Virus genome (UHGV): UHGV-0135394 | DNA from: a virus | Strand: one strand, 5' to 3' | DNA length: 25,890 bases | Part shown: in pieces, positions 2,467 to 19,241 of the stretch | Numbering within the stretch: the stretch's first letter is position 1 | Layout: each line of letters opens with the position of its first letter | Position numbers and translations under genes: made by a program | Notes under the pieces: generated by a model | Told to the model about the DNA's origin: nothing | Seen by the model: only the letters and a program-made list of their open reading frames with translations | Database searches by the model: none

Positions 2467-3800
2467 TGTCCGTTCCTGTAAATAATTTTCTGACCAGTTT
2501 TAGGATTTTTCGCGGTCATACCTTCTCGAAATGTTTGACCGCCAGATGTTGCTTGTTGTGTCTGTTGTTGCGCAGGCTGCTGAATATCTTCATACAGCTT
2601 GGCTTTTCTGGATTGCAATTGCTTAGTTAGTCCGCTGGGGAGAGAATCTCCATAAGTTGAAAGATAATCATCCATTTGCTGATTAAACTTTTCGCCTTCA
2701 GTATTTGCCATCAGTTTTGAGGTGTTGATTAAGTCTTGGACTTGCTCATTATTCAGCATCTTGCCGTTAGATAATTGGCTAACATAGTTACCAAGTGTGC
2801 CGAATATTCCATCAGTGCGTTTTACCTGCACTTGCTCACCTTCGCGTACCACAGATTGCGGATCCAGCGATTTCATATAGTTGAAAATCATTCCCAACTG
2901 CGCGGCTGGAGTGTTGCGCTTCCCAAGGGCTTGTAGGTTGTCAGAAGCACTGCGCATTGCAGAATAATTCTTTGAGAACCCATTAATATCACTATTCAGA
3001 TCTCGAACAAGTTTTGGGTCAATCTTTCCGCTTTCCTGTTGTTTCATCCCTAATTCCTGCAACTTCAGGGCTACGTTATCATTATGCATTTGTGCCCGCT
3101 GAGCCCTGTCTAGTTGAGCGTTTTGGATATTTGCCCATCCTCTCGCGTTCTCCATGTCAGCCTGACGGATGCTTTCATCCAATCGCCCTTTCTCAAGTTG
3201 GCGACCAACCATCTTATCCTGATAATCCAGCATTTTATCCGGGCCAACAGCCCCTAGCGTCATAGTAGTCAGCATGTGTGATAGCTGCTCTGGATTCTGA
3301 ATACCTGTCTGAATCATCCAGTCAGCATTAGCACCAACGCGATTTAACCTGTCCTTGTTGTCAGTAATGAATTTACTGTAGGCTTCCGGTCCCTGAGAAA
3401 GAGCGACGTTAGCCATCATGGCTAAATCGCCCATATCGTTGCGTTGCTGATCATTAAGACCGGAAAACGCCTGTTGTGCCTGTGCAACAAACGCTGGATT
3501 TTCCTGGGCAAACTTAAATAGTCCCGATGGATCACCAGAAGCCCATGCATCAGCGTGAACCTTATTGAACGCACTAATAGCTTTCTGTTGCTGTTCCTGA
3601 TTGTAAATATCAGCAACTCCAGCCAGACCACGTAACGCGGTCAGGCCAACGTTATTTGCACCTGAGCGAGCCAGTTCATTGTTTTCGCGGATCAGACCAA
3701 GCGTTGCGTTAATGTCGCTTGCCTTTGGCGCATTCTCGTTTTGCGCACCAATGCCAGCAAGAAAACCACCAGAATTAATACCCTGTTGCCACGTAGCCAT
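2451..3800 (-). CDS. Ejection protein, P22 gp20-like (449 aa)
   Basis: Synteny between gp7-like and gp16-like genes; Gln/Asn-rich composition typical of P22-group internal ejection proteins. Confidence 0.8.
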
Positions 3801-12384: not shown

Positions 12385-13884
12385 TTAAGTTCTCCGTGCG
12401 ATGGGCCTGATTGGGGCTGGTATCTTTTTCTCTTTTGGTTTTTTGATGTCGCGCATCATTTTGGAGAAGCGGCGCATCATGTATGCATAGCGAACGGCTG
12501 AGAGAACGTCGTCGTTAAGCTTGACGATCTTCCCGTTTTCATCACGGTGATAGAGGCGAAACTCCTCAAAGAATGGTTCACAGGTGTTGAATACCTTGAA
12601 GCGACCATCTAGCATCATGTCGCGCAATTCAGTGATTCCAGGCTCAACAGCATTACCGCCATCAGGCCATGTCGCATGCTCCTGCAACATCATAAATCCA
12701 GCGTCTGCATACTGCCCTTTGAGCTGCTCACCGCCGCCCTTCTCATGCTGGTTTCCGTCATGAGGCCATGCGGTTGGCACTTTATGCGCCCATGATTTAA
12801 CAGCTCCCCATGCCTGAACAGCTGTTTTTTCTTTCGCCTTCCACACGCGTGAAACGTAGATTGTGTCTGCGTCCTTATCCCACCAAAGCTGAACCTGCGC
12901 CTGTGGGTGATCCCATCCGAAATCCATCCCACCAATTACGTAGAAGTGATCAGGACACTCGAACGGCTGACACTTAATCGTCTCTTCCGGTATCTGGAAG
13001 ATTCGACCACTACCCATCGTAGGAATACCGCGAGCACGCGCCTCTCTCTCATGCTCGGGATAGGATGCGATGATTTGCTCTTTCTGCTCGTCGGTGTAGT
13101 GCTCAGCGTCGTAGATGGTCATGTTGACAACTTTCTGCGACTTGCTGGGATTCTTCAGGAACTTGGTAACAACGTCAGACATCCCCATCAGCGGGGTAAA
13201 CGTCAGAATTGAGAATTGCCCGTATTTGTTGGTACGGGTAAGACCTTCGCCATAAATGCTGTATGGTGGTTCTTCGTCAAACCACACGCCGTGGATTGTG
13301 TCACCCTGCCAGCGAGCGCGGCCTTGCGAGTATGGTTTGAAGTAGCAGATTGAAATGCCATCTTCAACGCCATCAGCCGTGTGATGCTTAACCAGAAGAT
13401 GATCAACAAGGTTCGGAAAGAAAGGAGACTTCTTCCAGCTAATGATGTCCTCTTTCGGTATGGAACCGTAGCCAGGCTCATCATTCTCTTCGATACGACC
13501 GCACAGGATGCGTTGAGTCGTTTTGGTTACAGTCTCGTTTGTCTCGCCGCCAATCCAGAAGACAACAGGCTCATAGAAACGCTTACCTTTCCACTCCCCA
13601 CCATATTTACCATCAGCAGGATAGCCTTTTGTGCCCGGATAACGCCCTGTAAGGTGAAACGCGACTTCAGCAGCACCAGTAAATGACTTACCAAGCTGGT
13701 TACCAGCCATAAAACATCGCTCTGGATAGTCATGTCCGGCGTCGATGAACTCACGCTGTTTGCTGTATGGCGTAAATTCATATAGCAGGTGAGTGTTCCG
13801 GTAGTTCTCTTCTTCTTCGAGTAGCTCGAGCAATTCGATTTGCTCTTCGTCGCTCAAGTTATCAAGAATCGCGTCCAGTTCCAC
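12385..13884 (-). CDS. Terminase large subunit, P22 gp2-like (499 aa)
   Basis: N-terminus [37 protein letters not shown] and length match recalled P22 gp2; Walker-type GNQLGKS motif. Confidence 0.95.
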
Positions 13885-14356
13885 GGTTGAATAGCTCCTT
13901 GATACGAGAGCGTCGCTTATCGCGATCTCCCTTATCAGGTGTCACGTCTTCAACTTGCGACTGCTCTTTGAGGCCCAAATCACGGGCGATGATATTAGCG
14001 TTGAGAAGGTCAGCGGCTGCGCCAGAGAATTTCTGGTCGTAGATGACCTGCTCTGCTCGCGTAACGACTTCAGATAAATCTTCTCGCAGGCGATATGTGC
14101 GCCATGTTTCAAGCGTCACATCAATGAACAGAGTGAGGCCGGTAATGGTCATCGCTCGCATCTTGGCGATAGGCTCTTGTATCACTTCACCCTGATACGA
14201 GAACGCCTTCATCTCCCATAGCGGGTTAGCTTCAACCCACTCGAAGTATTCACAACAAGCAGCCCACAGCGCCTCGGGCGATTCGAATTTAGGGTTTCGC
14301 CCATGACTACTGCGGGCCTCCCAAAATCGGTTGCCCTTTGGTGCTGCCATATTCAT
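13862..14356 (-). CDS. Terminase small subunit, P22 gp3-like; true start probably the third codon (ATG at 14348..14350)
   Basis: [38 protein letters not shown] matches recalled P22 gp3; expected to contain the pac site for headful packaging. Confidence 0.9.
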
Positions 14357-14373
14357 CTCACTTAGTTGTTATT

Positions 14374-14553
14374 TCAGGCTGAGGACTCTTTCGCGCCTTC
14401 AATCAGTGACTGCTTCAGCAATTCGAGTGTGCCAATCGCCTCGCATAAACTGATTTCACCATCGTAATCATGGATGGCGCTTTCCATCCGCTCGTATAGC
14501 TCTTGAGTAATTGGGAATTTCTTCTCCTTACCCAAATTGATTACGCGGCTCAC
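14374..14553 (-). CDS. Possible small ORF (59 aa, GTG start) upstream of small terminase
   Basis: Open frame found by manual reading of the minus strand; below the 60-aa ORF-track cutoff; no strong SD identified. Confidence 0.25.
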   Translation of the reverse strand: MSRVINLGKEKKFPITQELYERMESAIHDYDGEISLCEAIGTLELLKQSLIEGAKESSA

Positions 14554-14554
14554 A

Positions 14555-14797
14555 TCATGCTCCGGTGGTGAACAGGTCTAACGCTTCCTTCGATTTACGC
14601 ACCGCTTCGATAGTGCGGGTCGTGATATCTGAATTAGCGCCGCCTGACTGGAAGTGAATTTTGAATAGCTCAAGCTTCAGCTCGTCAGTGCCAATGAATT
14701 GAAATGCTTCTTCTGCGGCTGCGTTCTGGTTCATGACCAGTTTGTAAATCTCTAACTGGAATTTCTGTTCTTCAGTCATGGGAATAATCTCTGCCAT
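14555..14797 (-). CDS. Hypothetical phage protein (80 aa)
   Basis: ORF in the lysis-to-terminase accessory cluster, same strand as the late genes. Confidence 0.5.
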   Translation of the reverse strand: MAEIIPMTEEQKFQLEIYKLVMNQNAAAEEAFQFIGTDELKLELFKIHFQSGGANSDITTRTIEAVRKSKEALDLFTTGA

Positions 14798-14812
14798 TGT
14801 TGGCTCCGTTTA

Positions 14813-14844
14813 TCCGTTAAAAGGGATATCAGTTAAGTTATCCC
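14813..14844 (-). terminator. Possible weak intrinsic terminator
   Basis: Minus-strand hairpin GGGAUA-10 nt loop-UAUCCC (plus 14823..14844) followed by CUUUUAA. Confidence 0.3.
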
Positions 14845-14900
14845 GTGTAGGGTATAAGCCATTATCAAAGCCACTCTGTAGGGAATGGCTTTTGTAATAA

Positions 14901-15272
14901 CTACTGTTCGCTTAGCTTCTGCTTCAGCAAGTAACCTTCCAGCATCCAGATTTTATTCACCGCATTTTCGCGGGCGATCTTGCGACCGATCTCCGGGTCG
15001 AAGTTTTCCGGGCTGGCGCAGGCGCTTTCGCCGGTGACGGTGAAGCCGTTGCGCAGCACCAGGACGCAGAATGTAAGAAGCTTTAATGCTTCCTGACTTT
15101 CGGTTAAATCAAGCGCGGATTTGTATGTCGCCATAGCGCCCTCTCCGCCAATACCATCGTATGCGGTGAAGCAATGCTCGCTTTTAATCACGTCTTCGAT
15201 GTGCTGAGGAGTGATTCGCGGGGCTGTTTTGCCTTTCTCAACGATTTCTTTTTCGATTTGCTGGTCGTTCAT
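14901..15272 (-). CDS. Conserved phage protein (123 aa), possibly N4 gp49 / Sf6 gp66 family
   Basis: ORF in the accessory cluster; family assignment is from recollection only. Confidence 0.5.
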   Translation of the reverse strand: MNDQQIEKEIVEKGKTAPRITPQHIEDVIKSEHCFTAYDGIGGEGAMATYKSALDLTESQEALKLLTFCVLVLRNGFTVTGESACASPENFDPEIGRKIARENAVNKIWMLEGYLLKQKLSEQ

Positions 15273-15348
15273 AATTATGACCTTGTTGGTTGTTAAAGAT
15301 GTTTTTGTGATGGCGATAAAAAGGCCGCCTGAGCGACCTGTTAGTTGT

Positions 15349-15537
15349 TCACAACTTCCATTGTTGAAGGTTCAGCATGTCGAAAAATGATCCGCATTTG
15401 GGGGGATTTTCCATTCTTGCCCTCTCTTCAGCCGCTTTGTAATAAGCCATTGGCCTTTTCACACCATCAGTACCAGTGATGTATTCAACGCCTTCCTTCT
15501 GGTCTTTGTTTACGGAAACCATCGCAACATCTTCCAC
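15349..15537 (-). CDS. Hypothetical small protein (62 aa)
   Basis: ORF in accessory cluster; flanked by about 200-bp non-coding gaps. Confidence 0.4.
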   Translation of the reverse strand: MEDVAMVSVNKDQKEGVEYITGTDGVKRPMAYYKAAEERARMENPPKCGSFFDMLNLQQWKL

Positions 15538-15751
15538 TTGTTCGTTATCGATTCAGCGGATGTCTTTCCATCAGTCCGCCACCACAAAGAATCTTTTTTG
15601 CCTTAAGGCAGGAGCTTCATCTTTCAGTGGCTGCCAGTGTTATTTCCCCACTTACTGGCTTGGGTTGTTTCGTGGTACTGCCGTTAACTGGTGGCCCAGA
15701 ATAAATTCCGGTTTCATTATCAAGCCCACCCGTAAATGGGCTTTGTAATGG

Positions 15752-16015
15752 CTACTTCACTTTTGCTTTTGCTTCCGCTCGCTTACGCCGGCGCTCTTCT
15801 TTCCTCTCGGCTTTTGCCATGTCCATGAATGCCTGCATGATCGAGTTCCGCATCATGTAGCTAACAAAGTGATGATTGACACAGCCGTTGAGGCGCAGCT
15901 GCTCGCCAAACTCATCCACCGAGGCCAATGCTTCCATCATGCCCTTCTCGCCTTTCATGAACTCTGAGAAGTCGCGCCCCGCTCTGGAGGCGCATTCAAT
16001 GACACGATCACTCAT
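15752..16015 (-). CDS. Hypothetical protein (87 aa) with Lys/Arg/Glu-rich C-terminus
   Basis: ATGA-type start overlap with upstream KilA-N gene stop suggests translational coupling. Confidence 0.5.
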   Translation of the reverse strand: MSDRVIECASRAGRDFSEFMKGEKGMMEALASVDEFGEQLRLNGCVNHHFVSYMMRNSIMQAFMDMAKAERKEERRRKRAEAKAKVK

Positions 16016-16509
16016 CCCGGAAGCCCGGGGATCGTAATCTGCAGCTGGTTAGCCAGGGAGTTAATCTCAGCGACCAACACTGGCTTCGTATAGCGCCATG
16101 CTGCCAGCCCTTGTCCGCAGAAGCTCGCCATGTCTTTCTTCTGGTCAAACTCATGACATTTCATGTTGAGCTGCGCACTTAAGCTGTTGCGATGCTGAAG
16201 TTCTCCGGTGAAGTAGTCATCGAGGACTTTATAGGCCGCGTACTTGAACCCGGGGTTTAACCAAGCCGCATAATCGTAAGCAACAAACTTCCCGCCATAT
16301 GTTCCACCGTGTACACCGCGCTCAGTAAAAACCACAGATTCGTGGTTTTTCTCCAGCTCGGCTAAGAACTCTTTGGTCTGCTTGTTTCGCAGATAGTGGT
16401 ACGGCGATTCAGATTCACTTTTACCACTAGCTTTCCACATGTCAGTGAGGCAGATCATGCCATCTTCACCGATACGAATTGGTTGATTGAAGAGGGTTAA
16501 TGATTTCAT
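16012..16509 (-). CDS. KilA-N domain protein (165 aa)
   Basis: N-terminal region ...GMICLTDMWKASGKSESESPYHYLRNKQTKEFL resembles KilA-N/APSES-type DNA-binding domains common in phage accessory regions. Confidence 0.6.
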   Translation of the reverse strand: MKSLTLFNQPIRIGEDGMICLTDMWKASGKSESESPYHYLRNKQTKEFLAELEKNHESVVFTERGVHGGTYGGKFVAYDYAAWLNPGFKYAAYKVLDDYFTGELQHRNSLSAQLNMKCHEFDQKKDMASFCGQGLAAWRYTKPVLVAEINSLANQLQITIPGLPG

Positions 16510-16625
16510 AGCGTGTACCTACTCTTTGAAATGAACCTTTGCCGCACAGGAAACCAGCCCACCGAGGCTCGCCAGCACTAACTGGTATCCTCAAAGGCCC
16601 ATTCCAAAGGGGCAGGTTCGGTGTA

Positions 16626-16682
16626 AAAAACATGCGTTGCGGTACGCATTTATTGCAAAAAGCCCCGCATCGCGAGGCTCAT
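16626..16682 (-). terminator. Two tandem hairpins with U-tracts downstream of the lysis cassette
   Basis: Minus strand: GCCUCGCGAUGCGGGGC + UUUUUGC (plus ~16658..16682) and AUGCGU-6 nt loop-ACGCAU + GUUUUUU (plus ~16626..16649). Confidence 0.4.
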
Positions 16683-16710
16683 TAAATGGACTTTGTGATT
16701 TGCAAAAAAA

Positions 16711-17169
16711 TTATTTCAGGCATTGCGTCCTGATGTATTCCTGCAGGTAGTTAACCTGCGCGGTTATCTTGTCGATTCCACTTCGGAGACGGTAATAATT
16801 GAGTTCAGCATCTGCTGTAAGTCCTGGGCTTTCTCCATCGCCCATGCCGCTGGCTCCGGTCGTTGACTTTGCACAGGTGGCGGCGACTTGCAGGCGCTTA
16901 CGCCCAGCAGAAACATCAGCACGGAGACTTTCGATAGTCGCGTTAGCATCAGCAAGCTCCTTTGTGTATCTTGCGTCGAGTTCTGCTACATCACGTTGAC
17001 GCTTCCGCATGTCAGCGATGGTGGCGTTCGCCTTCTCCAGTTCACTGGCCTTGTTATCGCGCTGCTCTTTGTAGGCGATTGCGTTATCACGGTAATGATT
17101 AACAGCCCATGACAGGCAGACGATGATGCAGATAATCAGAGCGGGGATAATCGCGGTTACTCTGCTCAT
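16711..17169 (-). CDS. Rz: Spanin inner-membrane subunit Rz (152 aa)
   Basis: N-terminal TM helix plus coiled-coil periplasmic domain; close to recalled lambda Rz; follows R with 4-nt overlap. Confidence 0.9.
16764..16955 (-). CDS. Rz1: Spanin outer-membrane lipoprotein Rz1, embedded in the +1 frame of Rz
   Basis: Embedded ORF with lipobox-like ...LLGVSAC and Pro-rich mature region; exact start within the ORF uncertain. Confidence 0.8.
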
Positions 17170-17642
17170 ACCTCAATCTCTCTGACCGTTCCGCCCGCTT
17201 CTTTGAATTTTGCAATCAGGCTGTCAGCCTTATGCTCGAACTGACCATAACCAGCGCCCGGCAGTGAAGCCCAGATATTGCTGCAACGGTCGATAGCCTG
17301 ACGAATATCACCGCGATCAATCATCGGTAAAGCGCCACGCTCTTTAATCTGCTGCAATGCCACTGCGTCCTGGCTTTTGGGAGAGAAGTCTTTCAGGCCA
17401 AGCTGCTTGCGATAGGCATCCCACCAACGGGAAAGAAGTTGGTAACGTCCGGCTGCTGTTGATTTGAGTTTTGGGTTTAGCGTGACAAGTTTGCGAGGGT
17501 GATCGGAGTAATCAGTGAATAGCTCTCCGCCTACAATGACGTCATAACCATGATTTCTGGTTTTCTGCCGTCCGTTATCAGTTCCCTCTGACCACGCCAG
17601 CATATCGAGGAACGCCTTACGTTGATTATTGATTTCCACCAT
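17166..17642 (-). CDS. R: Endolysin, lambda R-type lytic transglycosylase (158 aa)
   Basis: Near-identity to recalled lambda R ([35 protein letters not shown]...). Confidence 0.95.
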
Positions 17643-17949
17643 CTTCTACTCCGGCTTTTTTAGCAGCGAAGCGTTTGATAAGCGAACCAATCGAGTCAGT
17701 ACCGATGTAGCCGATGAACACGCTCGTTATATAAGCGAGATTGCTACTTAGTCCGGCGAAGTCGAGAAGGTCACGAATGAACCAGGCGATAATGGCGCAC
17801 ATCGTTGCGTCGATTACTGTTTTTGTAAACGCACCGCCATTATATCTGCCGCGAAGGTACGCCATTGCAAACGCAAGGATTGCCCCGATGCCTTGTTCCT
17901 TTGCCGCGAGAATGGCGGCTAACAGGTCATGTTTTTCTGGCATCTTCAT
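17626..17949 (-). CDS. S: Class I holin, lambda S-type (107 aa) with dual-start motif
   Basis: Near-identity to recalled lambda S; Met1-Lys2-Met3 dual start (antiholin S107 / holin S105). Confidence 0.95.
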
Positions 17950-18342
17950 GTCTTACCCCCAATAAGGGGATTTGCTCTATTTAATTAGGAATAAGGTCGA
18001 TTACTGATAGAACAAATCCAGGCTACTGTGTTTAGTAATCAGATTTGTTCGTGACCGATATGCACGGGCAAAACGGCAGGAGGTTGTTAGCGCGACCTCC
18101 TGTCACCCGCTTTCACGAAGATCATGTGTAGAAGGCCGCAGCGTAACTATCACTGATGAATTCAGGATAGCCAGTGGCTACGGCTCAGTTTGGGTTGTGC
18201 TGTTGCTGGGCGGCGATGACGCCTGTACGCATTTGGTGATCCGGTTCTGCTTCCGGTATTCGCTTAATTCAGCACAACGGAAAGAGCACTCAATGCATTT
18301 AAACCAAGCCCCATAAAGGAGAATGCTCTTACCTGTTGCACA

Positions 18343-18406
18343 GATATAAAAAATCCCGAAACCGTTATGCAGGCTCTAACTATTACCTGCGAACTGTTTC
18401 GGGATT
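18343..18406 (-). terminator. tR'-like intrinsic terminator of the late leader transcript
   Basis: Long imperfect hairpin (UCCCGAAAC...GUUUCGGGA) followed by UUUUUUAU on the minus strand; matches recalled lambda tR'. Confidence 0.8.
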
Positions 18407-18540
18407 GCATTTTGCAGACCTCTCAGCCTGCGATGGTTGGAGTTCCAGACGATACGTCGAAGTGACCAACTAGGCGGAATCGGTAGTAAGCGCCGCCTCT
18501 TTTCATCTCACTACCACAACGAGCGAATTAACCCATCGTT
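18345..18540 (-). ncRNA. Lambda 6S-like short late leader RNA (pR' to tR')
   Basis: About 196 nt between the predicted pR' start site and tR', matching the roughly 194-nt lambda 6S RNA; sequence close to recalled lambda. Confidence 0.5.
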
Positions 18541-18546
18541 GGGTCA

Positions 18547-18575
18547 AATTTACCCAACTTTATTCAAAAAGTCAA
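18547..18575 (-). promoter_or_regulatory. Late promoter pR' with overlapping Q-utilisation (qut) region
   Basis: Minus strand -35 TTGACT (plus 18570..18575), 17-bp spacer, -10 TAAATT (plus 18547..18552), as in lambda pR', directly downstream of Q. Confidence 0.8.
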
Positions 18576-18617: not shown

Positions 18618-19241
18618 CTAACGTGTGACCGCATTCAAAATGTTGTCTGCGATTGACTCTTCTTTGTGGCATTGCACCACCAGAGCGTCATACAGCGGCT
18701 TAACAGTGCGTGACCAGGTGGGTTGAGTAAGGTTTGGGATTAGCATCGTTACAGCGCGATATGCGGCGCTTGCTGGCATTCTTGAATAGCCGACACCTTT
18801 GCATCTTCCGCACTCTTTCTCAACAACTCTCCCCCACTGCTCTGTTTTGGCTATATCAACCGCACGGCCTGTACCGTGGCAATCTCTGCATCTTGCGCCC
18901 GGCGTCGCGGCACTACGGCAATAATCCGCATAAGCGAATGTTGCGAGCACTTGCAGTACCTTTGCCTTAGTATTTCCTTCAAGCTTTGCCACACCACGGT
19001 ATTTCCCCGATACCTTGTGTGCAAATTGCATCAGATAGTTGATAGCCTTTTGTTTGTCGTTCTGGCTGAGTTCGTGCTTACCACAGAATGCAGCCATTCC
19101 GAATCCGGCTTGTGATTGCGCCATCCCCATAGCAGCCATCACATCAGTACCGGAAAGAGAGTCAGAAGCCGTAGCCCGTGGTGAGTCGCTCATCATCGGG
19201 CTTTTTGGCGAATGAAATTTAGCTACGCTTTCGAGCCTCAT
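18618..19241 (-). CDS. Q: Late-gene antiterminator Q, lambda-type (207 aa)
   Basis: Essentially identical to recalled lambda Q, including Cys-rich zinc-binding region CRDCHGTG...CGRCKG. Confidence 0.95.
   Translation of the reverse strand: MRLESVAKFHSPKSPMMSDSPRATASDSLSGTDVMAAMGMAQSQAGFGMAAFCGKHELSQNDKQKAINYLMQFAHKVSGKYRGVAKLEGNTKAKVLQVLATFAYADYCRSAATPGARCRDCHGTGRAVDIAKTEQWGRVVEKECGRCKGVGYSRMPASAAYRAVTMLIPNLTQPTWSRTVKPLYDALVVQCHKEESIADNILNAVTR

Follow-up and report, generated by a model that had tools for sequence, protein, structure and literature searches.

A variable accessory-gene region carrying a predicted Acb4-family sponge gene between the lysis and terminase genes of a P22-like coliphage

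The DNA considered here, positions 14,357 to 16,710 of the 25,890-nucleotide viral genome UHGV-0135394 (the whole of which we call the window), lies between the lysis and terminase genes of what sequence comparison indicates is a P22-like (Lederbergvirus) temperate phage of E. coli. We consider it likely that this stretch of the late operon is a region of variable accessory genes, made of independently exchangeable cassettes that keep a fixed order and include a predicted Acb4 sponge. The feature exists, is of an ordinary kind and has for the most part been described before: all six of its open reading frames (ORFs) match long-annotated genes (HK620 hkbK, hkbL, hkbM and hkbN, Sf6 genes 66-68 and P22 Orf80), and so the cluster itself is not new. 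What our analysis corrects, as far as homology can indicate, is that one supposedly unknown ORF belongs to the Acb4 family of sponges, and that the locus looks like a site where sponge genes are swapped, bounded by a conserved stem-loop. A preliminary description made from the DNA letters had listed proteins of 165, 87, 62, 123, 80 and possibly 59 amino acids (aa), and we find all six on the minus strand at those sizes. Each matches a PHROG family of its own at E <= ~1e-41, so that all six are conserved phage genes, including the doubtful 59-aa ORF (phrog_3546, E 7.2e-42). The matches are to uncharacterised accessory genes rather than to characterised P22/Sf6 housekeeping proteins, the outcome that the same description had set against its own proposal.

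The cassettes follow one another in the order Rz, KilA-N/ORF11CD3 gene with the 87-aa gene, 62-aa ORF with its terminator, Acb4, DUF2560, hkbN and small terminase. Across 124 related loci selected by their hairpin and 72 selected by DUF2560 we observe that gene order is constant and the flanks are fixed while the content is combinatorial, which bears out the earlier description of the cluster as accessory and non-structural. The second of these censuses was anchored on DUF2560 and not on the stem-loop, and comprised the 72 loci with both Rz and DUF2560; Rha- or KilA-N-ORF11CD3 genes were present in 45 of these, an ORF similar to the 50-aa Sf6 gp65 in 35, Acb4 in 16, the hkbL-type 87-aa ORF in 11 and the 62-aa ORF in 5, with a Tad2-like gene in 4 (two of them in tandem with Acb4) and an Acb2-like gene in one. 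Elsewhere the place immediately upstream of the stem-loop is taken by a Tad2-like protein (PF11195, E 3.9e-26), an Acb2/Tad1-hairpin protein (PF24729, E 3e-18) or a T5orf172/MUG113 protein; in one such locus (L049) the order reads holin, endolysin, Rz, gp65-like, Tad2-like, stem-loop, DUF2560, hkbN, terminase. Moreover, breakpoints of homology with these loci accumulate along the window at 14550, 14800, 14890-14900, 15280, 15550, 15690-15750 and 16650-16710, coinciding with cassette borders or intergenic stem-loops. Variable genes, known counter-defence genes among them, thus sit between conserved flanks, and since the same slot holds Tad2-like or Acb2/Tad1-like sponge genes in relatives, the sequence comparisons point to a variable accessory and anti-defence hotspot within the late operon. 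Similar to morons and diversity hotspots as generally conceived, the window has optional genes amid conserved late genes, terminator-like hairpins at cassette ends and known counter-defence families (Acb4, Tad2-like, Acb2/Tad1-like) that alternate in one slot; it departs from them in that one conserved stem-loop family is common to the 3' ends of the cassettes. The preliminary description had guessed at anti-defence functions for the cluster as a whole, and this part of it stands for the 123-aa ORF only, by its homology to Acb4 and with the Tad2-like and Acb2/Tad1-like genes of relatives occupying the same slot.

The 123-aa ORF (14901-15272, minus strand), of the Sf6 gp66/N4 gp49 type, was also counted previously among the unknowns, a label that no longer fits. 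It matches PF13876, the Pfam 'N4 Gp49 / phage Sf6 gene 66 family', with 118.4 bits (cut-off 27; E 1.9e-34) over profile positions 1-82 of 82, and the founding member of this family is Acb4 of the Bacillus phage SPO1 (PDB 9E4W; Chang et al., bioRxiv 10.1101/2024.12.30.630793). The same study describes SPO1 Acb4 as a 96-aa protein with a fold derived from double-stranded RNA-binding domains (dsRBDs), forming a pinwheel tetramer that sequesters four 3'3'-cGAMP molecules with a dissociation constant (Kd) of ~157 nM, and reports that Acb4 rescues T4 lacking acb1 and acb2 on a host with a cyclic-oligonucleotide-based anti-phage signalling system (CBASS); 8/8 purified homologues bound 3'3'-cGAMP and none bound c-di-GMP, c-di-AMP (3'3'-cAA) was bound only by homologues of Gram-negative phages, and Sf6 gp66 is among the homologues tabulated (bioRxiv 10.1101/2024.12.30.630793). 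According to a 2026 preprint, the guard system PanDA is triggered when N4 Acb4 binds c-di-AMP (Kd 111 nM). Activity of this kind is known only for SPO1 Acb4, the eight purified homologues and N4/Bas69 Acb4. Our protein finds the 9e4w Acb4 sequence directly in a phmmer search (E 0.004), and is 80% identical to Sf6 gp66, 48% to N4 gp49 and 29% to SPO1 Acb4. Additional support comes from an AlphaFold2 model built with 34 homologues (pLDDT 82, pTM 0.70), whose secondary structure (helices 3-12, 22-28 and 93-120; strands 29-36, 66-73 and 78-84) reproduces the expected dsRBD-like Acb4 protomer, in which three antiparallel strands are flanked by a helical region at the N-terminus and by long helices at the C-terminus. 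When this model was compared to the PDB with Foldseek, the best 13 matches were all chains of 9e4w (probability 1.00, TM-score normalised to the target 0.61-0.72). Profile score, direct PDB match and predicted fold thus agree in placing the 123-aa ORF in the Acb4 (PF13876) family, as far as sequence and a predicted fold can place it.

By analogy with its homologues, the protein would form a tetramer and sequester cyclic dinucleotide alarm signals, likely 3'3'-cGAMP and 3'3'-c-di-AMP as bound by homologues of Gram-negative phages, and with these signals soaked up the CBASS effectors would not be activated. It has in common with SPO1 Acb4 the core of three β-strands and long C-terminal helix together with the aromatic stacking residues, and differs in that SPO1 is a virulent phage, whereas the phage studied here is a temperate lambdoid one that has the gene in its late operon. 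An alignment with the SPO1, N4, epsilon15 and Sf6 proteins reveals that the SPO1 contacts Phe48, Phe62 and Ile66 are kept as Phe77, Phe91 and Ile95, that Asn63, which makes a backbone contact, becomes Asp92, and that Glu49, Val56, Tyr57, Thr70 and Lys81 are replaced by Thr78, Cys85, Ala86, Ile99 and Met110, respectively. The Thr and Cys at the Glu49 and Val56 positions are common to our protein and N4 Acb4, which likewise diverges from SPO1 at ligand-contact positions and is a c-di-AMP binder, and the core motifs NGFT.TG.SAC and LEGYLLKQ are near-identical between the two. The subfamily carries a 17-residue N-terminal extension with no counterpart in SPO1 Acb4 or N4 gp49, and a 28-residue insertion in the β1-β2 loop (residues 37-64) that is lacking in SPO1 Acb4 and shorter in N4 gp49; this insertion, within which the position of the guanine-contacting SPO1 Lys36 falls, is hypervariable (mean column entropy 2.37 bits versus 0.24 for the core). 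These two subfamily-specific additions, along with the dsRBD ancestry of the fold, might suggest that PF13876 proteins of the Sf6 gp66 subfamily are not CBASS sponges and use their dsRBD-like fold to bind something else, for example dsRNA or some other nucleotide signal. For a dsRBD to bind RNA, its second helix has to begin with a [KR]-x(1,3)-[KR] motif, which SPO1 Acb4 does not have and some phage dsRBDs keep, and the subfamily has G-R97-K98-I-A-R101 at exactly this place, the start of the long helix, with Arg97 invariant and Arg101 nearly so. We nevertheless regard such a function as very unlikely, considering that all 8 diverse homologues of Chang et al. bind 3'3'-cGAMP, that N4 Acb4, 48% identical and with near-identical core motifs, binds c-di-AMP at 111 nM, that the stacking residues Phe77 and Phe91 are conserved, and that the company kept by the subfamily is that usual for sponges, namely tandem arrangement with Tad2-like genes and, in one 196-aa homologue (P0071), fusion of an Acb4 of this very subfamily to a PF21825 (Sequestin) domain.

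The second element common to these loci is the stem-loop, a family with the consensus ATTACAAAGCC - variable centre - GGCTTGATAAT that occurs in the window as two similar copies, each beginning 2 nt after the stop codon of an unrelated gene. Type A (AUUACAAAAGCCAUUC-CCUACA-GAGUGGCUUUGAUAAU; 14861..14898, minus strand; fold z-score -3.96) follows Acb4, and type B (CATTACAAAGCCCA-UUUACGGG-UGGGCUUGAUAAUG; 15715..15750, minus strand) follows the 87-aa gene. HK620, Dewey, Sf6 and the E. coli C4 prophage each have the motif once, always at the 3' end of a gene of the 87-aa or Acb4 type, and it was further found in >120 IMG/VR stretches, where it sits 2-11 nt after the stop codons of at least 13 unrelated ORF families. 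Copies outside the window include those at 3259-3291 of locus L001, 1297-1329 of L002, 507-543 of L003 and 3634-3666 of L004. All 27 of its 27 sequence variants fold alike, 98% of alignment cells are paired with compensatory changes at four pairs, and the observed covariation score was reached by none of 500 shuffles. Of the two strands, the antisense one has the better U-tract. We envisage that the conserved stem-loops could form the 3' ends of transcripts or terminate transcription weakly in both directions, and could also supply short homologies for cassette swapping by recombination. Travelling with stem-loop B is a conserved non-coding block (15558..15714, minus strand; ~190 nt when counted together with the stem-loop), recovered as 28 variants of 92-100% identity that all end at about 15558; it lies directly upstream of gene 66 in Sf6, downstream of hkbL in HK620 and upstream of the 62-aa ORF here, and gave no ORF, PHROG, Rfam or promoter match. 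Judged by homology breakpoints, the 62-aa ORF and its terminator form a discrete cassette of their own at ~15303-15557, inserted between this block and Acb4. Searches of Rfam returned nothing for the whole window at gathering thresholds and a single chance snoRNA match for 14300-16800 at E <= 1, which puts the hairpins outside all curated RNA families; a reading of the stem-loop arms as integration host factor sites was dropped on inspection because the consensus was not matched.

The ~200-bp gaps and the hairpin and U-tract structures reported earlier are likewise borne out. The non-coding gaps measure 201 bp (16510-16710), 214 bp (15538-15751), 76 bp and 103 bp, a terminator-like scan of 13800-18400 gave 10 sites compared to 5.1 +/- 2.5 in shuffled sequence, and 3 of 6 gap segments fold at z-scores of -3.5 to -4.0, a stability that none of 200 shuffles attained. 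Two terminator-like hairpins stand in tandem after Rz on the minus strand, the first of them (GAGCCUCGC-GAU-GCGGGGCUU then UUUUGCAAU; 16650..16680) seen in the minimum free energy (MFE) fold of 16600-16740 and annotated as a rho-independent terminator in its counterpart in mEpX1, and the second (AUGCGUACCGCAACGCAU then GUUUUUUACA; 16622..16649) found by both the scan and folding. The 5' leader of the KilA-N gene contains a long imperfect stem (16524..16609, minus strand; inverted repeat I1) with 18-nt arms 50 nt apart that lengthens in the MFE fold (16500-16620, z = -3.57, 0/200 shuffles); ending just before the ribosome-binding site, it may be an element of translational or stability control. 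After the 62-aa ORF there is a canonical intrinsic terminator (AGGUCGC-UCAG-GCGGCCU then UUUUAUCGCC; 15312..15339, minus strand), detected by scan and fold, with a GC-rich stem of 7 bp followed by UUUUAU at 15339..15322 (z = -3.53, 0/200 shuffles). A further hairpin is found in the DUF2560 leader (GGGAUA...UAUCCC then UUUUAA; 14810..14857, minus strand; inverted repeat I3, also seen in the fold); in loci without Acb4, it and stem-loop A are conserved as a pair.

How the cluster is expressed bears directly on what kind of region it is. All six genes are on the late-operon strand, and between 13800 and 18400 we found no sigma-70-like promoter on this minus (coding) strand, in a threshold-based scan for sigma-70 sites only and with the gaps also inspected manually. 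Late, Q-dependent expression appears to be the simplest model: starting at pR', RNA polymerase modified by Q would transcribe the cluster rightward and read through the intercistronic hairpins and terminators, so that the cluster proteins would be made late together with the lysis and head proteins. The terminator-like hairpins that bracket several of the genes could instead recall morons expressed from the prophage, each with its own promoter and terminator and acting for the host in lysogenic conversion, superinfection exclusion or defence. The 62-aa ORF with its 214-bp upstream gap and canonical terminator comes closest to this arrangement, the other cassettes having stem-loops without a good U-tract, and the KilA-N protein has a weak partial match to the PADLOC candidate-defence model PDC-S22 (E 1.2e-8). 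We find this account decidedly unlikely, however. As no cassette-specific promoters were detected, the classical definition of a moron (promoter, gene and terminator) does not apply; most of the 214-bp gap (15558-15750) is conserved sequence that Sf6 has before Acb4 and HK620 has after hkbL, and is therefore not specific to the 62-aa ORF; the only genes of the slot to which a function can be assigned are counter-defence sponges; and the PDC-S22 match is limited to ~30 residues of the common KilA-N domain. We judged that match and the weak partial matches to QatB and JetB (E ~0.01), which the PADLOC and NCBIfam searches of the six proteins also returned, to be domain-level or chance.

The KilA-N protein itself (165 aa; 16012-16509, minus strand; HK620 hkbK type, phrog_129) was correctly recognised in the preliminary description, with PF04383 matching residues 9-101 (57.6 bits, cut-off 23.8, E 1.3e-15), and additionally has a C-terminal ORF11CD3 domain (PF10549, residues 109-161, 50.5 bits, cut-off 25, E 2.4e-13). 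Its gene is 96% identical in DNA to the HK620 hkbK region, and the protein is 94-100% identical to the products of post-Rz genes of Stx-converting phages, ECP1 and others. The start of the following gene, for an 87-aa protein with a basic C-terminal tail (15752-16015, minus strand; HK620 hkbL type, phrog_875, E 3.4e-54), overlaps the KilA-N stop by 4 bp (ATGA), an overlap through which the 87-aa protein is translationally coupled to KilA-N. The 87-aa family is narrow (138 clusters, confined to Enterobacterales and with no Pfam domain), and a gene of this type also follows KilA-N proteins with other C-terminal domains, such as KilA-N+P63C in mEpX1. Together with the 201-bp leader and stem-loop B the two genes make up a mobile unit of ~1 kb, and comparison of the loci indicates that the pair is a common mobile two-gene module. 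Similar to P1 KilA and phage D3 ORF11, the protein has an N-terminal KilA-N DNA-binding domain, and it has the position and the ORF11CD3 C-terminal domain in common with Rha-type proteins of other P22-like phages; it is, however, much shorter than P1 KilA, to which it is ~30% identical over residues 17-127 with the identity limited to the domain, and in the loci compared here it is, unlike those proteins, always followed by a coupled, basic-tailed protein of 85-87 aa. The pair could be a DNA-binding regulatory or antirepressor-type module in the position of P22 Rha, a role that is the usual annotation of KilA-N relatives (e.g. P1 kilA) and not a result.

The remaining three ORFs would encode non-structural proteins, and one of these, DUF2560, is present in almost all phages of this group. 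The 62-aa ORF (15349-15537, minus strand, GTG start; phrog_5425, E 1.7e-41) is aligned by its PHROG profile only from residue 9, which makes the ATG at 15522 the likelier start, and the protein is probably one of 57 aa. DUF2560 (80 aa; 14555-14797, minus strand; HK620 hkbM, Sf6 gp67, P22 Orf80) matches PF10834 with 147.7 bits (cut-off 25), a narrow family confined to Enterobacterales; its predicted structure has four helices, and none of the structural neighbours was informative. The acidic 59-aa protein (14374-14553, minus strand, GTG start; HK620 hkbN, Sf6 gp68) begins one base after the DUF2560 stop. Neither it nor the 62-aa ORF has matches beyond their own PHROG families, hkbN has no Pfam or PDB match, and PDB sequence searches with the five proteins other than Acb4 gave nothing credible. 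Homologue searches with DUF2560 and the 87-aa protein returned no informative domain fusions, an apparent ORF11CD3 fusion (P0214) matching that domain only in part. A literature search on DUF2560, the hkb gene names and the PHROG and Pfam identifiers yielded nothing useful except the equation of PF13876 with Acb4, DUF2560 being named in two papers only and each time in passing, and the lysis-to-terminase region does not figure in the accessory-gene screen by Silas et al. Every locus that extends as far as gp3 has DUF2560 ahead of the terminase, irrespective of the other content; the gene adjoins a different type of small terminase in HK620, in Sf6 and in the P22-type window, and is tightly, probably translationally, coupled to hkbN, which ends only 17 nt before gp3. 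One might conclude from this that DUF2560, hkbN and perhaps others are conserved helpers of lysis timing or DNA packaging and have no accessory or anti-defence function. This seems to us quite unlikely, given that hkbN is often missing (15/124 loci), that DUF2560 is truncated in mEpX1 and that it resembles no protein of packaging or lysis. In addition, no essential gene of P22 is known to map between gene 15 and gene 3.

As regards its origins, the region appears from sequence comparison to be a mosaic of HK620 hkbK-hkbN and Sf6 genes 66-68, its best phage matches being HK620 hkbK, hkbL, hkbM and hkbN (96%) and Sf6 genes 66, 67 and 68 (93%). It is like HK620 hkbK-hkbL-hkbM-hkbN, Sf6 65-68 and P22 rha and Orf80 in position, order and strand, and with the HK620 and Sf6 regions it has 93-96% DNA identity over the common parts as well as intergenic stem-loops and non-coding blocks in common. 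Unlike either of these alone, however, it combines both gene sets and adds the 62-aa cassette. A megablast search found 240 phage records that match partly, none with a single match to >= 80% of the six-gene stretch, and complete E. coli genomes covered <= 88% of a 7-kb query around it; the whole combination is present in one IMG/VR contig (L013, IMGVR_UViG_3300045988_015114), which is 100% identical over 13800-17200. In the HK97-like siphovirus mEpX1, Rz is followed by the KilA-N+P63C gene, an hkbL-like gene, a PF13876 gene and the truncated DUF2560, which its annotators equate with P22 Orf80.

Both flanks named in the preliminary description, the lysis cassette and the terminase, were found. 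The P22-like coliphages E212, APC_JM3.2 and IME10 are 95-96% identical to the whole window, whose minus strand holds a lambdoid late operon of Q, holin, endolysin, Rz, accessory region, and small then large terminase. Upstream of the accessory region are the 207-aa Q antiterminator (18618-19241), a promoter-like site (18575..18547), holin (17626-17949), endolysin (17166-17642) and Rz (16711-17169; PF03245, E 2e-39), all on the minus strand, and downstream are a small terminase of the P22 gp3 type (13862-14356, minus strand; PF16677, E 3.6e-33) and the large terminase (12385-13884, minus strand). Inside Rz, in the +1 frame, lies an ORF for an Rz1-type lipoprotein (16764-16955, minus strand), the second member of the spanin pair; it has the lipobox LLGVSAC, and its mature part is rich in proline. 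The E. coli C4 prophage, elsewhere 97% identical, has no match to the ~400 bp (18121-18517) that separate holin from the Q gene and candidate pR'. Two tRNA genes occupy the corresponding position in Sf6, but ARAGORN detected none in the whole window. No PHROG match was obtained for ORFs lying within the gaps or antisense to genes, and all of these, including a 90-aa plus-strand ORF (15476-15748) and a 21-aa ORF beginning in a stem-loop arm, were taken as non-coding.

Several points weigh against reading the stretch as a set of exchangeable late cassettes with a CBASS sponge among them. The argument for late expression comes solely from gene order and the lack of recognisable sigma-70 promoters, and the terminators that follow Rz and the 62-aa ORF might just as well delimit units under separate regulation. 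The covariation of the stem-loop comes mostly from its two sequence types A and B, and therefore reflects few independent events. That the 123-aa protein binds ligand, forms tetramers and inhibits CBASS is predicted from homologues of 29-48% identity, and we found in the literature no functional test of the closer Sf6 gp66. Because the SPO1 contacts Glu49, Tyr57, Thr70 and Lys81 are not conserved and Lys36 falls in the 28-residue insertion, the ligand spectrum of the 123-aa protein is uncertain. Finally, DUF2560 is so constant that its function may be core rather than accessory. At the more speculative end, the stem-loop might mark a slot dedicated to the exchange of sponge genes in lambdoid late operons, with DUF2560, hkbN, the 62-aa ORF and the KilA-N partner all acting in counter-defence and the Acb4 insertion serving to retune ligand specificity or to evade guards that sense sponges (Panoptes, PanDA); we put this forward tentatively, as an unlikely extension of the reading that we favour.

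For a gene annotated as 'hypothetical' or 'Gp49 family' in HK620-, Sf6-, epsilon15- and HK97-like phages, our analysis provides a testable function as a predicted late cyclic-dinucleotide sponge against CBASS, and it suggests that prophages of this kind would be sensitive to the sponge-detecting guard systems PanDA and Panoptes. More generally, it points to the lysis-to-terminase gap of lambdoid phages as a place where sponge families replace one another, which makes the small conserved neighbours in that gap reasonable candidates for new counter-defence proteins. Current views are not overturned by this; rather, known families and a known concept are extended.

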